Shown: positions 26,166 to 31,019 of the stretch, piece after piece | Layout: every line of letters begins with the position of its first letter | Numbering within the stretch: the stretch's first letter is position 1 | Virus record (IMG/VR): IMGVR_UViG_2562617057_000003 | Reading direction: 5' to 3' (one strand) | Source: a virus | Taxonomy: Duplodnaviria > Heunggongvirae > Uroviricota > Caudoviricetes | Length of the DNA stretch: 47,732 nt | The notes under the pieces: model-generated | What the model saw: the letters and a program-made list of their open reading frames with translations, nothing else | Told to the model about the DNA's origin: nothing | Databases searched by the model: none | Program-made: the position numbers and the translations under genes

Positions 26166-26564
26166 ACCCGTCAGCCTGACAGCCATGACGAACGTCTGAT
26201 ACAGCGCCCTGCATGAATGACATCGGGATAATCCAGAAAGGAATAGCATCGTACCCACAAGAATCAGTGTAAGTGTCCTGTTTCTTCCACCCCCGCACAG
26301 GACTGGCGAGCATGAGGGACAAACCCGCGAACCATAAACGCGGTAAAAACCCGGTGTGCATCGTTTTTGATTATTCCCGCACACTCGCGCAGAAGGAGTT
26401 CCCCGTCGGGCTACGGTCATGGTTAATGCGGGAATACAGCGACGATACAGCGCATGATGTGTCAGGCCTGAATACCTTTATCCGTTAAAAGGGATATCAG
26501 TTAAGTTATCCCGTGTAGGGTATAAGCCATTATCAAGCCCACCAGTAGATGGGCTTTGTAATGG

Positions 26565-26822
26565 CTACTTCGCTTTTGCTTCCGCTCGCTTACGCCGGCG
26601 CTCTTCTTTCCTCTCGGCTTTTGCCATGTCCATGAATGCCTGCATGATCGAGTTCCGCATCATGTAGCTAACAAAGTGATGATTGACACAGCCGTTGAGG
26701 CGCAGCTGCTCGCCAAACTCATCCACCGAGGCCAATGCTTCCATCATGCCCTTCTCGCCTTTCATGAACTCTGAGAAGTCGCGCCCCGCTCTGGAGGCGC
26801 ATTCAATGACACGATCACTCAT
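26565..26822 (-). CDS. Hypothetical 85-aa protein translationally coupled to the KilA-N gene
   Basis: ATG overlaps the stop of the upstream gene (ATGA); Lys/Arg/Glu-rich C-terminal tail; no family recognised. Confidence 0.55.
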   Translation of the reverse strand: MSDRVIECASRAGRDFSEFMKGEKGMMEALASVDEFGEQLRLNGCVNHHFVSYMMRNSIMQAFMDMAKAERKEERRRKRAEAKAK

Positions 26823-27316
26823 CCCGGAAGCCCGGGGATCGTTATCTGCAGCTGGTTAGCCAGGGAGTTAATCTCAGCGACCAACACTGGCTTCGTATAG
26901 CGCCATGCCGCCAGCCCTTGTCCACAGAAGCTCGCCATATCTTTTTTCTGATCAAACTCATGACACTTCATATTGAGCTGCGCACTTAAGCTGTTGCGAT
27001 GCTGAAGTTCTCCGGTGAAGTAGTCATCCAGGACTTTATAGGCTGCATATTTAAATCCGGGGTTTAGCCATGCTGCATAATCATAAGCAACAAACTTCCC
27101 GCCATATGTTCCACCGTGTACACCGCGCTCAGTAAAAACCACAGATTCGTGGTTTTTCTCCAGCTCGGCTAAGAACTCTTTGGTCTGCTTGTTTCGCAGG
27201 TAGTGGTACGGAGATTCAGATTCACTTTTACCACTGGCTTTCCACATATCAGTGAGGCAGATCATTCCTGATTCATCAACACGGATCGGTGTATTAAAAA
27301 GCGTGATTGCTTTCAT
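26819..27316 (-). CDS. KilA-N domain protein
   Basis: 165 aa; N-terminal MKAITLFNTPIRVDESGMICLTDMWKASGKS...YHYLRNKQTKEFLAEL resembles the KilA-N DNA-binding domain. Confidence 0.7.
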   Translation of the reverse strand: MKAITLFNTPIRVDESGMICLTDMWKASGKSESESPYHYLRNKQTKEFLAELEKNHESVVFTERGVHGGTYGGKFVAYDYAAWLNPGFKYAAYKVLDDYFTGELQHRNSLSAQLNMKCHEFDQKKDMASFCGQGLAAWRYTKPVLVAEINSLANQLQITIPGLPG

Positions 27317-27462
27317 GGCGTCTTTACCTTTTAGAAAGATGAGCCTGTTCGCACAGAAAAGCCGTCCCCGAGATGGTCGCCACCATATACGGCAATTCTC
27401 AGGCTCAGCTTTCTGAAAGACTCGGGGTTTATATGCGCTGCGATGCGCGGTTTACTGCGGAC

Positions 27463-27488
27463 ATATAAAAGCCCCGCAAGTGCGAGGC
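27463..27488 (-). terminator. Putative intrinsic terminator after Rz
   Basis: Minus-strand hairpin GCCTCGCACTTGCGGGGC followed by TTTTATAT, 33 nt after the Rz stop. Confidence 0.5.
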
Positions 27489-27520
27489 TCATTAAATGGA
27501 CTTTGTGATTTGCAAAAAAA

Positions 27521-27958
27521 TTATTTCAGGCATTGCGTCCTGATGTATTCCTGCAGGTAGTTAACCTGCGCGGTTATCCTGTCGATTCCACTTCGGAGAC
27601 GGTAATAATTGAGTTCAGCATCTGCTGTAAGTCTTGGGCTTTCTCCATAGCCCATGCTGCTGGCTCCGGTCGTTGACTTTGCACAGGTGGCGGCGACTTG
27701 CAGGCGCTTACGACCAGCAGAAACATCAGCACGGAGACTTTCGATAGTCGCGTTAGCATCAGCAAGCTCCTTTGTGTATCTGGCGTCGAGTTCTGCTACA
27801 TCACGTTGACGCTTCTGCATATCAGAGATGATGGATGTGGCCTTATCGCGCTGCTCTTTGTAGGTAATGGCGTTACTACGGTAATGGCTGGTGGCCTGCC
27901 ACAACGCACCGCAGGCCACCAGCAACGCAATAATCACGCCATGAAGAACACGATTCAT
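27521..27958 (-). CDS. Rz: Rz inner-membrane spanin
   Basis: [40 protein letters not shown]... lambda Rz-like with N-terminal TM segment; ATG at 27958. Confidence 0.88.
27574..27765 (-). CDS. Rz1: Rz1 outer-membrane lipoprotein spanin, embedded in Rz in the +1 frame
   Basis: 63 aa with lipoprotein signal and lipobox (LLVVSAC), Pro-rich mature part; nested inside Rz. Confidence 0.8.
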
Positions 27959-28172
27959 ATCACCACCAGCGGATTGCCCAGACCAGAACAGCAATGGACA
28001 CAATACGAATAGCAAAGGCCGCTGCTCTTGTTAAATCCAGACTGGCTGGAGTCTCCACTTCAATGCCTTTCATAATGGACAACCTCAGAAAAAATTTTTT
28101 ATACTTTCTCACAGGGAAAACACCTCCCTACCCATAATTTCTCCCTTGCCTTACTCAAGGTCAGAAAACACA

Positions 28173-28210
28173 AAACCCCGACTGTTGGTGCAATCGGGGT
28201 TTTTACTTTT
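28173..28210 (-). terminator. Strong hairpin with flanking T tracts between endolysin and Rz
   Basis: 8-bp stem AAACCCCG/CGGGGTTT with a 14-nt loop, followed by TTTTACTTTT on plus and TGTGTTTTC on minus. Confidence 0.45.
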
Positions 28211-28293
28211 ATTCACTTACGTTTTGCCGGTTAGCAGGATTTCGTGTTATCCGCCCGCGTTGACCAACCTCATTTTTCAGCGAAATATTCTGC

Positions 28294-28827
28294 TTATCTG
28301 TCGATACCCCAGCATGTCAGCGCCGCTTCCTGATCCCGACGAATAACCTGACCGTAACAGTTATTTGAACGAATACGGCAGTCTCTGCCACCATCCTTAA
28401 TCCACCAGCGAATCGCCTCGCATGCGCCCTTACGATCACCGGCATTCAGCCGCTTATAAAACGTCGACGGGAAACACTTACCGGGGCCAATGTTATAGGG
28501 GCAAAATGACGCTATACCCGCTTTTTGTGGTTCGGTCAGTGGTACTTTAATATTGCGCTCCACCCATGCCAGCGCCTTATCACGTTCAATGGCGTTAACC
28601 TGGTCGCATTTTTCCTTCGACAGTTTCATACCGGGAAAAACGGGTTTACCATCCACCGTCGTGGCACCCCGACAGATGGTCCAGATGCCGGAACCATCGC
28701 GGTATGCCGTAGTGTGGTTACCTTCTTTTTCATCCAGAAACTGGTCGAGAATATCAGGCGCAGGCGCACCGATAGCAATCAGTGCCAGAACGGCAGCCGA
28801 CAGGCCATATCTGATTTTTACGTTCAT
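28294..28827 (-). CDS. R: Phage lysozyme (endolysin) with N-terminal signal-anchor/SAR-like segment
   Basis: 177 aa; MNVKIRYGLSAAVLALIAIGAPAPD hydrophobic N-terminus, then ...EGNHTTAYRDGSGIWTICRGATTVDGK... lysozyme motifs; resembles K-12 prophage lysozymes. Confidence 0.92.
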   Translation of the reverse strand: MNVKIRYGLSAAVLALIAIGAPAPDILDQFLDEKEGNHTTAYRDGSGIWTICRGATTVDGKPVFPGMKLSKEKCDQVNAIERDKALAWVERNIKVPLTEPQKAGIASFCPYNIGPGKCFPSTFYKRLNAGDRKGACEAIRWWIKDGGRDCRIRSNNCYGQVIRRDQEAALTCWGIDR

Positions 28828-28940
28828 GGATATTTATCAGGATTTATCGGCTTCAAATCCCCGGATATGTTAAATCTTACCTCGCCAGTGATGGGCACTG
28901 GCGGGAGGAGGATGTCAATCTGATAAACACAGAGGTGACT

Positions 28941-29201
28941 ATGGATTACACAAATCTACCAAAACAAACTTTTGCTGATTTAATCGCACTCAGGCAAGCA
29001 GTCGTAGCTCTAATCAACTTGTTGCCGGAGAAGGAAAAGGAATTAGTTAAAGCGCTTCTTAACAGAACTGCCGCCGATTTTTCATCATATCCACTGACAG
29101 ATGACCTTGCGGACCTTCCTGAATTAATTGCAGCGTCCACCATTAAGCTTACTGAAGAGATTTACCCTCCTCAAAAATCTTCACAAAATTCCTGCGAGTA
29201 A
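28941..29201 (+). CDS. Hypothetical 86-aa acidic protein, convergent to and overlapping the 176-aa ORF
   Basis: ATG at 28941 with RBS AGAGG 5 nt upstream; plus strand inside a minus-strand late operon; no family recognised. Confidence 0.4.
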   Translation: MDYTNLPKQTFADLIALRQAVVALINLLPEKEKELVKALLNRTAADFSSYPLTDDLADLPELIAASTIKLTEEIYPPQKSSQNSCE

Positions 29202-29679
29202 CTTCAATGCAATAATCGTAAAACGCCGCAAACTGCTCATCGCGGCGTTTTTTTTCATCTTCAGAAGGAATCAGCACCGACAATTTTTTCTCCAGTTTTT
29301 CAATGGGCGATTCAATATCATCTTTTTCTGACCGCAATGCCGTCGGTGGCGTCTTCAGAGAACCAGTAATTCTTCCCGGTAGCTTTCCTTTGTAGGTTAT
29401 CCACACATTCTGCGCCTCTAAAATTATGGGGCGCTTTTCCGGCGACTGCTCATCCCCTTCACATAACCCGGCAGCAACATCCAGGAATACCTGTCTGATT
29501 CTCATTCTGGCCGCTGCCTCATAAAACTCCAGCGCGGCACCTTCAACACGGTCCAGCGAGATGTCCAGGTCAAAAATTTCACCGTCAAAGCGTTTTTTGT
29601 CCCGTAACGCTAAAGTTACCGCAACTTTATTCTCAAAATTGCGGATCCCTTTCACAATCAGTTCATAGTTTTGTGTCAT
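29149..29679 (-). CDS. Hypothetical 176-aa protein inserted between holin and endolysin
   Basis: Stop 4 nt before the holin ORF ends; no TM segment, charged C-terminal half; same position as ydfR in K-12 Qin (homology not established). Confidence 0.65.
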   Translation of the reverse strand: MTQNYELIVKGIRNFENKVAVTLALRDKKRFDGEIFDLDISLDRVEGAALEFYEAAARMRIRQVFLDVAAGLCEGDEQSPEKRPIILEAQNVWITYKGKLPGRITGSLKTPPTALRSEKDDIESPIEKLEKKLSVLIPSEDEKKRRDEQFAAFYDYCIEVTRRNFVKIFEEGKSLQ

Positions 29680-29683
29680 TGAA

Positions 29684-29899
29684 TTACTCTCCCCGCGCAG
29701 CCTTACGCTTGTCTTCTCTTATTTTGAAATACAGATTTGTCAGATAAGTCAGAAGCCCCAGAAGCAGACTTCCCAGCACACCAATCGCAGCCCACTGTGA
29801 CGGACTGACCTGATCCAACCACTGCAAAAACCAGTAGCCGGCACTACCTGCTGAGGTGCCATAGGCGACACCCGTTGTTAACTTATCCATGGATTTCAT
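29684..29899 (-). CDS. S: Class II holin / pinholin (phage 21 S-like) with dual-start motif
   Basis: 71 aa [71 protein letters not shown]; two TM segments; M1/M4 dual start. Confidence 0.9.
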
Positions 29900-29966
29900 A
29901 ACCCCACCTCGCAGATGCGGGTGCTGTGTAATGGAAATAAAAAGACCACCTGACGTGGCCACCAGA

Positions 29967-31019
29967 TTATTTCCCCACCAGCTCGTTTATCTCTTTCACT
30001 GTCTGGTTAAACCGCTCTGACTCAAGCTCAACACCTAAGGCCCGACGCCCCAGCGCCATTGCTGCTTTTATTGTGGAACCGGATCCCATAAAAAAATCAG
30101 CAACCAGATCACCAGGTCGACTACTGGCATTGATTATTTGCCTGAGCATATCCGCCGGTTTCTCGCACGGATGTTTACCCGGGTAGAACTGAACGGGCTT
30201 ATGCATCCAGACATCGGTATAAGGCACGGATACTGATACGGAGAAATAGCGCCGGAGAGATTTAAACTCATCCAGCAATTCAGAATATTTGCGATTCAGT
30301 GAATCATAAGATGCCACCAGCTGGTGGTGTGGTTGTTCCAGTTGTTGTTCCTGAAACTTCTCTGCCGCTATATGGGAAAACAGTGCCTGTAACTTCCGAT
30401 AGTCAGCCTCATTCGGCAACTGCCACTGACTGGCACCAAACCAGTGGGAAACCATATTTTTCTTACCTGTGGCTTCGGCAATTTGTTTTGCCGTTATACC
30501 CAGTTCGGCACGAGCATCCCTGAAATACGATATCAGCGGTGCCATTATGTGCTGTTTGAGTTCCCTTTCTTTTGCCGCATAGCCGTCACTTTTGCCGCGA
30601 TATGGCCCCTGGTAATGTTCAGCAAACAGAACGCGCTCTGTGGCAGGAAAATATGCGCGCAGACTTTCTTTATTACACCCATTCCAACGTCCGGACGGCT
30701 TCGCCCAGATGATATGGTTAAGCACGTTGAAACGTTCACGCATCATGATCTCAATATCAGATGCCAGGCGATGCCCACAGAACAGGTAAAGGCTTCCGGC
30801 AGGCTTCAGCACCCGCCAGAACTGCGTCAGACACTGGTCCAGCCATTTCAGGTAATCATCATCGCCCTTCCACTGGTTATCCCAGCCTTCGGGTTTCACT
30901 TTGAAGTATGGCGGGTCTGTGACTATCAGATCGACAGAGTTTTCCGGTAAGGTCTGGATAAATTCCAGGCAATCAGCGTTGATTAACTCACAACTGGATA
31001 TTTTTACAGTATTAATCAT
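29967..31019 (-). CDS. Orphan DNA N6-adenine methyltransferase
   Basis: 350 aa; motif IV DPPY early ([10 protein letters not shown]), AdoMet motif FFMGSGST near the C-terminus; no adjacent restriction endonuclease ORF. Confidence 0.88.

Follow-up and report, generated by a model that had tools for sequence, protein, structure and literature searches.

The question raised by the locus described here is why two genes of a phage lysis cassette should stand 335 nucleotides (nt) apart. The locus lies in a 47,732-nt stretch of tailed-phage DNA (Caudoviricetes; IMG/VR record IMGVR_UViG_2562617057_000003), which is called the window below, at its full length; the interval under study is the gap between the endolysin gene and the Rz gene, and the genes concerned, which belong to the lysis cassette of a lambdoid prophage, are on the minus strand. 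An earlier note, made from the letters alone, had seen in this gap a hairpin and a small open reading frame (ORF) for a membrane peptide, and had offered three explanations: a lysis regulator, the remnant of a displaced gene, or a small RNA (sRNA) locus. The answer proposed here is that the interval is not a spacer but a plug-in cassette of phage lysis modules. Its small ORF is, to judge from its substitutions, a real gene under strong purifying selection, and we hold with moderate confidence that the predicted product is a late-expressed, terminator-insulated accessory lysis protein of the inner membrane.

Read directly from the sequence, the interval occupies positions 27959-28293, between the endolysin TAA (28296-28294) and the Rz ATG (27958-27956), which confirms its place and takes one nucleotide from the 336 claimed. 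The 6,073-bp stretch around it is 100% identical to contig AAKB02000001.1 of GCA_000167915.2. The premise that endolysin and Rz genes are normally contiguous is true of the K-12 prophages DLP12 and Qin, in which R and Rz overlap and the small ORF has no homologue; it is too narrow as a general statement, since the whole interval is found at a coverage of at least 80% in 670 of 5,426 complete Escherichia coli genomes. What fills the R-Rz junction is variable and includes an antirepressor gene in Shiga toxin (Stx) phages and other tiny transmembrane (TM) ORFs (PHROGs 4906 and 6632), which stand singly or form arrays of at most four.

Conservation and Family of the Small ORF

By itself, an ORF of 37-50 codons in 335 nt is uninformative; it is the codon-level substitution pattern and the conservation, which go far beyond chance, that carry the argument. 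A divergent group of relatives (viral contigs L069-L095) shares with the window about 75% nucleotide identity over the module and 88% amino-acid identity. Over the 37-codon core, a Nei-Gojobori comparison with this group counts 16.5-20 synonymous differences over 27.5 sites and 5-5.5 non-synonymous ones, which are conservative, over 80.5 sites. The corresponding proportions of synonymous (pS) and non-synonymous (pN) differences are 0.60-0.72 and 0.062-0.068, giving a pN/pS of about 0.1. Among closer E. coli relatives, the same method gives 6-9 synonymous changes to 1 non-synonymous change. The ORF is intact in hundreds of contigs, frameshifted variants being rare singletons. Alignment with related phages, the check proposed in the earlier note, thus bears out its 37-aa minus-strand ORF as a conserved gene for a single-TM peptide, under purifying selection.

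The 50-aa translation matches PHROG 4493, a family with no assigned function, over its full length (E = 7e-24; residues 1-50 on positions 1-54 of the 56 in the profile), and a 28-aa variant of the ORF matches it too; PHROGs 1115 and 3246 are related to this family and give weaker matches. Records of the family come from Escherichia, Salmonella, Citrobacter and Yersinia. Databases already list the product as a hypothetical protein: it is WP_000675931.1 in RefSeq, is annotated in phage GER2 and, in prophage Sp4 of O157:H7 Sakai, is ECs_1094, between the endolysin ECs_1096 and the Rz ECs_1092. The three PHROGs, the RefSeq entry and ECs_1094 are direct members, with the same R-Rz position, leader and hairpin. 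Database entries of the PHROG 4493 type, mostly annotated in the 37-aa form, carry no function, so PHROG membership leaves the role of the protein unexplained. What would be new here is the probable 50-aa start, the gating by a terminator, an upstream ORF (uORF) and hairpins, and the cassette-like modularity.

A profile search of 1.84 billion representative proteins returned 35 matches, all of them small proteins of the same family except the weakest (3,722 aa); the family therefore seems narrow and specific to enterobacterial phages. In species-representative genomes, neither a peptide-pattern scan nor a leader-DNA scan found a match. One family member, P0028, is a natural chimera that joins an N-terminus of the 1115 type (MKNDLELKAPVTDDISR) to a C-terminus of the 4493 type, which shows recombination inside the tiny ORF at a conserved AFAI motif.

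Could the ORF nevertheless be a chance frame or a decayed fragment in a non-functional spacer? ORFs of such length do arise by chance in 335 nt, and Pfam has no match for the small ORF or for any of the other tiny ORFs. This explanation deserves almost no credence: the excess of synonymous over non-synonymous changes excludes it, and the full-length PHROG match, the spread over four genera and the retention of a ribosome-binding site (RBS) and of a coupling junction also stand against it. The remnant of a displaced gene suggested in the earlier note falls with it, given a pN/pS of about 0.1 and the match to PHROG 4493.

The Start Site

The frame has two in-phase starts, each with a Shine-Dalgarno (SD) sequence: GTG 28112 and, 13 codons downstream, ATG 28073, from which the annotated 37-aa form is read. 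The product is probably the 50-aa form that begins at the GTG. The profile of PHROG 4493 covers the 13-residue N-terminal extension, and the basic motif of the extension, (R/K)xY(K/R)xxF/L(R/L)LRxSM, is kept at the protein level in Salmonella paralogues and distant members. The GTG has been replaced by ATG independently in L017 and L069, and in L006, which has lost the uORF by deletion, the long frame starts at an ATG that directly adjoins the upstream SD. The substitutions in the extension (2 synonymous and 2 non-synonymous over 12 codons) are compatible with coding in what is a small sample. The extension adds a net charge of +5, which brings the protein from +1 at 37 aa to +6 at 50 aa. Current annotations would then have the wrong start, giving 37 aa instead of 50 aa.

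The internal ATG and its GAGG are kept in all relatives, including L100, in which the extension is frameshifted. Since this second start is conserved everywhere, both may be used, in a dual-start arrangement, and the 37-aa form is possibly made alongside the 50-aa form.

The Predicted Protein

The single TM helix predicted in the earlier note is found by two methods: on the Kyte-Doolittle scale, residues 29-48 of the 50-aa form reach a 19-residue mean of 1.96, and AlphaFold2 places a helix at residues 23-49 with a predicted local distance difference test score (pLDDT) above 90, and another at residues 3-16 with low confidence. Residues 1-15 carry a net charge of +6, the linker is acidic (-3), and the protein ends with RWW right after the TM helix. 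From the positive-inside rule, we infer an N-in, tail-anchored-like topology in the inner membrane.

The charged, hydrophilic C-terminal domain of holins is absent from this protein, which has one TM helix and an RWW end, and it matches no holin family of Pfam or PHROG. Nor does it look like a spanin: its TM helix is C-terminal, it is only 50 aa long, and a genuine Rz/Rz1 pair lies downstream. It does share with type I toxins the character of a small hydrophobic peptide.

The Structured Leader

The leader between hairpin T1 (see below) and the ORF is near-identical in E. coli and Salmonella, where the downstream ORFs share only about 40% identity. It contains two hairpins, H2 and H3, and the uORF (Table 1). 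The arrangement SD-AAATT-[AG]TG is kept in leaders of the window type, of Salmonella and of the divergent group, with a uORF of 8 or 13 codons whose peptide differs. In the divergent group the leader itself differs, and SD-AAATT-GTG and a 13-codon uORF that reaches just past the long-form start are retained.

In 15 leaders from E. coli and Salmonella, the stem of H2 is invariant and its loop variable; H3 likewise varies in the loop and not in the stem. In L111 and L112 (two units), which are among the metagenomic relatives, a hairpin with a 5-bp stem and a 7-nt loop, CCUAU-N7-AUAGG, abuts the SD, a doubly compensatory change with respect to H2. The combination of H2 and SD occurs once in the window, where none is expected by chance. 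The sense RNA folds with z = -2.7, and the consensus fold has an energy of -32.5 kcal/mol. A leader of this kind would be expected for a membrane peptide that is potentially harmful and whose translation is tightly gated and depends on coupling. The pattern resembles that of mok/hok and of the MS2 L gene.

The Predicted Terminator Hairpin T1

Upstream of the leader stands T1, a predicted intrinsic terminator with the usual G+C stem-loop and U-tract. The earlier note had a strong hairpin with flanking T tracts in the right place; it is stronger than the 8 bp given there and faces both directions. T1 has 13 pairs including an A/U extension, with a 9-pair G+C-rich core (CCCCGAUUG/CAGUCGGGG; 6 G-C pairs) and a 6-nt loop. 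On the minus strand, an A-tract precedes the stem and UUUUGUGUUUU follows it, and a terminator scan calls the structure.

T1 is present in every relative, with compensatory pairs (UG:8/AU:6 and UA:12/CG:3, plus G-C in the divergent group). Members of this group are homologous to the window from T1 onwards and have three different genes upstream of it. By these comparisons, T1 travels with the small ORF. Its G-U asymmetry gives a mixed answer as to strand, the sense fold being the more stable in 9 of 13 variants; because of this and of the U-tracts on both strands, T1 is best called bidirectional.

No sigma-70-like promoter site was found on the minus strand in 27400-29000, and in L111-L113 the start codon lies only 30-50 nt beyond T1. 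The late transcript, extended by read-through, must therefore be the source of expression. In lambdoid phages this transcript is Q-antiterminated, and we infer the same for the small ORF.

The Junction with Rz

At the 3' end of the small ORF, the codons TGG TGG TGA and the T that follows give GGUGGUGAU, which has 8 of the 9 letters of the extended SD consensus GGAGGUGAU; the Rz ATG comes immediately after. The ORF thus abuts Rz as the earlier note said, with a single base (T, 27959) rather than 2 nt in between, and its description as positioned for coupling to Rz is borne out, the last codons themselves forming the Rz SD. A TGGTGGTRR(N1-4)ATG junction recurs before genes other than Rz, namely a lipoprotein gene (L081), a portal-like gene (L111) and an endolysin gene (L112). 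Given this recurrence, RWW-stop may be constrained as much by the downstream RBS as by the protein.

In some records, Rz is annotated from an upstream TTG (164-174 aa; window 27521-28015, L109, which is Sakai ECs_1092, and L011) and overlaps the small ORF by about 55 nt. ATG 27958 with its strong SD is the likely true Rz start, and some annotated Rz genes would thus reach too far, into the small ORF.

Genomic Contexts of the Relatives

The lysis cassettes that hold relatives of the small ORF are of at least five non-homologous kinds, and the usual place of the relative is just upstream of Rz. The context of the window and of more than 60 other loci combines an S21 pinholin, a signal-anchor-release (SAR) GH24 endolysin and Rz. 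In L096-L099 the partners are holin_2_3, a GH24 endolysin/lysozyme and Rz; in L103 they are a lambda-S-like holin, a GH19 endolysin and Rz; and in L102 the ORF follows a P22-type antirepressor, still directly before Rz. L070-L095 and the inducible phage phiSTEC1575-Stx2k (L110; OQ243220) have holin_8/holin_3_7 and an M15 peptidase, and a 60-aa lipoprotein follows. In L112, relatives flank a phrog_920 holin, upstream of a GH24 endolysin.

A role as partner of the spanins was considered and rejected: in most loci the small ORF stands before Rz, but it shows no covariation with the type of Rz; in phiSTEC1575-Stx2k it is followed by the 60-aa lipoprotein, and in L112 its place is upstream of the holin and endolysin genes. 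In L081 (1474-1831) and L110 (2974-3331), whose cassette has two holins and an M15 endolysin, no Rz-type i-spanin is recognisable, and the small TM ORF is coupled via TGATATG to the 60-aa lipoprotein (phrog_7528, lipobox LVGC). This lipoprotein could be a partnerless o-spanin or belong to an unrecognised pair for disruption of the outer membrane.

Tandem arrays of 2-5 tiny TM genes (PHROGs 6632, 4906, 3246 and 4493) are found in L005 (1990-2561), L007 (2590-3158), L112 (2430-3403) and L111 (250-737). Near-identical repeated G+C hairpins punctuate those of L111 and L112, before 3 of the 5 genes in L112 and before both units in L111, and the arrays look like the outcome of cassette multiplication by recombination at hairpins. 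A different tiny TM ORF, of phrog_4906 (48 aa, MISDKLITL...), lies just upstream of Rz in the Stx-type cassettes with an antirepressor gene (L108, which is Sakai Sp11 (ECs_5730), 1650-1796; L003, about 3360-3510). As this ORF fills the slot there, a tiny membrane-protein gene before Rz appears to be general in these cassettes.

A Proposed Mode of Expression and Action

How, then, might the cassette work? Having no promoter of its own, it would be transcribed only within the Q-antiterminated late transcript that reads through T1; in the lysogen, T1 would stop stray upstream transcription before it reached the small gene and the spanin genes. Ribosomes would load at SD1, which H2 partly closes, and translate the 8-codon uORF, and this translation would open H3 and so free the hidden SD of the GTG start. 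Reinitiation at the overlapping GTGA would give the 50-aa form, to which the internal SD2 and ATG may add the 37-aa form, a dual start as in holins. On reaching the end of the small ORF, ribosomes would pass to Rz, which begins 1 nt further on. The protein, with its +6 N-terminal helix, acidic linker and C-terminal TM helix, would act late in infection on the membrane steps of lysis. This role, that of an accessory or modulator of those steps, is suggested by genomic association.

Alternative Explanations

Two alternatives involve an RNA made from the interval. The conserved segment that follows the endolysin gene (about 85 nt, with the invariant core GGATAACACRAAATCC) is kept after non-homologous endolysins (GH24 and GH19) in E. 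coli and Salmonella; it is also present in Stx phages that have an antirepressor gene instead of the small ORF and a different terminator after it. No convincing promoter or structure was found in this segment: its consensus structure is weak (-4.4 kcal/mol), and the promoter candidates, rejected, were weak matches of the ATGAC(N16)GATAAC type that lack the critical final T. A permissive Rfam scan of 26500-30500 gave no family at threshold; the sub-threshold hits were terminator look-alikes (sar, rimP leader, isrL), the best being sar RNA with 25.1 bits against a threshold of 43, in its terminator part only, and AgvB, AsxR, STnc100 and Sok were also below. Among all EcOnc peaks for Hfq obtained by cross-linking and analysis of cDNA (CRAC; Tree et al. 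2014, Table S2), none falls in the R-Rz interval of Sakai Sp4 (1184728-1184947); EcOnc04, 05, 08 and 21 map upstream of the esterase gene, EcOnc35 upstream of the holin. The prophage sRNAs PasA/PasC of enterohaemorrhagic E. coli were rejected as candidates, as they sit between the esterase and holin genes and not between R and Rz. The sRNA locus suggested in the earlier note is therefore weak: a promoter-like site does face the bidirectional T1, but there is neither an Rfam family nor an Hfq-CRAC peak, and the geometry of the site is lost in L111.

Were the functional product a sense-strand RNA, that is, the post-endolysin segment plus T1 as a 3' untranslated region-derived or terminated sRNA with the small ORF secondary, the conservation of the core even where Stx phages have no small ORF would be accounted for, as would the predicted quality of T1 as a sense-strand terminator. 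This is very unlikely, given the missing minus-strand promoter-like site, the weak structure of the segment and the negative Rfam and Hfq results, and since it leaves the purifying selection on the ORF unexplained, it would at best describe an additional function. A type I toxin-antitoxin-like unit is also unlikely, if less so. It would consist of the membrane peptide as toxin and an antisense RNA that stops at T1 after about 100 nt and is complementary to SD1, the uORF and the GTG start; this RNA would block uORF-coupled translation, as Sok does on mok/hok. The promoter-like site matches at 10 of 12 positions and its -10 hexamer, TATACT, persists in the relatives from E. coli and Salmonella and in L100; the U-tract of T1 is good on the plus strand; the predicted 105-nt antisense RNA folds with z = -4.3; and type I loci typically show uORF-coupled translation and small hydrophobic ORFs in tandem, as in L005, L007, L111 and L112. 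A precedent exists in hokW-sokW, a type I system whose toxin aids the release of Stx phage (PMC8621323); as an identity for the present locus it was rejected, since it is not located in the lysis cassette. Against an antisense RNA, 2.1 such promoter-like sites are expected by chance in the region, and the hexamers lie inside conserved codons and beside SD2, which gives their conservation another explanation. Moreover, the -35 and -10 hexamers of L111 are 23 nt apart, a separate promoter for the toxin mRNA is missing, 9 of 13 hairpin variants have G-U pairs that speak for the sense strand, and the Hfq and Rfam results count here as well.

Several observations weigh against an accessory lysis protein as proposed here. 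The structural support for H2 and H3 comes mainly from loop-only variation and one compensatory variant of H2, because the stems are invariant. The coding signal of the 13-codon extension would rest on four substitutions and is thin, and the frameshifted extension of L100 suggests that the short form could be the sole product in some lineages. The hydrophobic stretch of 4493-type proteins is short and contains an Arg. T1 folds about equally well on either strand, and the promoter-like site faces it from the opposite strand. No publication on the gene came up in literature searches by locus tag or on small ORFs located between endolysin and Rz. Finally, L100, L101 and L113 place the ORF after tail-fibre genes, with no recognisable lysis gene adjacent, so the link to lysis is strong but not absolute. 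There, bracketed by hairpins, the ORF occupies classic moron positions, and it might be a moron-type prophage gene, made in the lysogen and protective, for example by superinfection exclusion like HK97 gp15, for which the Rz site is merely a convenient place of insertion. The R-Rz junction is indeed a mosaic hot spot, with 1-4 different tiny TM ORFs or an antirepressor gene, and a neighbouring tiny ORF in L111 matches a PHROG of the 'moron' category described as a membrane protein. Such an origin seems improbable, since no context shows a promoter between T1 and the ORF and the terminator stands upstream rather than downstream, which makes expression in the prophage state unlikely; the tight predicted coupling to Rz, across a 1-nt gap with no terminator, and the location of most occurrences within lysis cassettes point away from it too.

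Comparison with Known Systems

The dual-start holins (lambda S105/S107, phage 21 S68/S71) are like the small ORF in being small membrane proteins of the lysis cassette with two in-frame starts, a longer form with a positive N-terminus and late, Q-dependent expression, which for the small ORF is a predicted feature. Unlike them, the small ORF has no homology to holins, one TM helix, no charged C-terminal tail, a place after the endolysin gene, and starts 13 codons apart instead of 2-3. With hok/mok/sok it has in common a hydrophobic peptide of about 50 aa, an overlapping upstream frame, a structured leader and a possible antisense RNA; it differs in having no Hok homology and no toxin promoter, in lying inside a late operon, and in that its antisense RNA is only putative, with a promoter not conserved in distant relatives. 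MS2 L has the same basic N-terminus and hydrophobic C-terminus, and a hairpin-hidden start reached by ribosomes that end an upstream frame. However, it is a non-homologous protein of an RNA phage and accomplishes single-gene lysis, whereas the window has a full set of holin, endolysin and spanins.

Mu gp25 (releasin), P1 LydB, P2 LysA and phiKT gp28 (disruptin), which tune or complete lysis, are similarly small and non-essential-looking components of lysis cassettes, and gp28 is also a short cationic peptide. No similarity to any of them was found by Pfam, and the profile search returned only the small ORF's own family. Members of this family are found beside SAR as well as non-SAR endolysins and beside full spanins, so its product in the window would be neither a releasin-specific partner nor a substitute for spanins. 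Morons of the HK97 gp15 type resemble the small ORF as tiny inner-membrane proteins of prophages between late genes, and some relatives of the small ORF lie beside tail-fibre genes; such morons have their own promoter and a downstream terminator, whereas here the terminator is upstream and no promoter is seen.

Features of the Lysis Region

The features of the interval and of the surrounding lysis cassette are collected in Table 1.

Table 1. Positions of the small gene, its leader and the neighbouring lysis genes in the window.
Feature	Position	Strand	Remarks
Small membrane-protein gene, long form (50 aa)	27960-28112	-	GTG 28112; same open frame as short form; phrog_4493
Small membrane-protein gene, short form (37 aa)	ATG 28073 to TGA 27962-27960	-	PGAP-annotated form; SD2 GAGG 28083-28086
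uORF, 8 codons	28109-28135	-	ATG GGT AGG GAG GTG TTT TCC CTG TGA; TGA overlaps GTG start (GTGA)
Hairpin H2	28144-28160	-	CCUUG-N7-CAAGG; 3' arm overlaps SD1 (GGGAGA, 28140-28145)
Hairpin H3	28113-28129	-	AGGGAGG-loop-UUCCCU; pairs the SD-like GGGAGG 10 nt upstream of GTG 28112; RNAalifold and RNAfold
Hairpin T1, bidirectional intrinsic-terminator type	28162-28213	both	Stem 28172-28203; on the minus strand, A-tract 28200-28213 and U-tract 28162-28175
Rz Shine-Dalgarno sequence	27959-27967	-	GGUGGUGAU; from last codons and stop of the small ORF
Conserved post-endolysin segment	28204-28293	-	Core GGATAACACGAAATCC 28237-28252
Antisense promoter-like site	28076-28105	+	TGGACA-18-TATACT; 10/12 match; 2.1 expected per shuffle of the region; uncertain
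Phage-21-type class II holin	29684-29962	-	PF04971
DUF1327/YdfR-like gene	29149-29679	-
SAR-type GH24 endolysin	28294-28827	-	PF00959, E = 1.4e-24; phrog_7 endolysin; hydrophobic SAR-like N-terminal segment GLSAAVLALIAIGA
Rz (i-spanin)	27521-27958	-	PF03245, E = 7e-36; phrog_13
Rz1-like lipoprotein frame embedded in Rz	about 27574-27765	-
Terminator after Rz	27469-27490		Terminator scan
KilA-N gene			Follows the terminator after Rz

Two further genes were noticed in this region. A conserved plus-strand ORF of 88 aa (28935-29201; phrog_2572, E = 4e-53) overlaps the 3' end of the DUF1327/YdfR-like gene in convergent orientation, and this opposed pair, between holin and endolysin, is annotated also in L005 and in phiSTEC1575-Stx2k. 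Immediately upstream of the holin, on the minus strand, lies a gene for an N6/N4 DNA methyltransferase (29967-31019; PF01555, from the L013 gene table), in the position that toxin or esterase cargo occupies in Stx and related phages.

Significance for Phage Lysis

The wider proposal can be made, as a speculation that is rather doubtful at present, that cassettes of this kind form an undescribed class of plug-in units for antiterminated late operons, whose peptides would add a new layer of lysis control independent of the type of holin or endolysin. Such a unit would open at its 5' end with a terminator hairpin, continue with a hairpin that occludes an SD, accompanied or not by a uORF, and with a tiny TM gene, and close with an RWW-stop (GGUGGU) that serves as RBS for the next gene, whichever this is. 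Units could multiply to give 1-5 copies in a row, from at least three families of peptides, and be shuffled between non-homologous lysis cassettes, with functions such as isoform timing or spanin gating.

If there is no lysis phenotype, the small ORF will be one more conserved hypothetical small phage gene. If its peptide does modulate lysis, it would be an unrecognised fourth component of the holin-endolysin-spanin cassette. About one sequenced E. coli genome in eight, that of O157:H7 Sakai among them, carries the cassette, as do inducible Stx phages, in which the timing of lysis governs the release of toxin and phage. The gating by terminator, uORF and hairpins, if confirmed, would constitute a compact and transferable way to silence a membrane-active peptide until Q-dependent late transcription.

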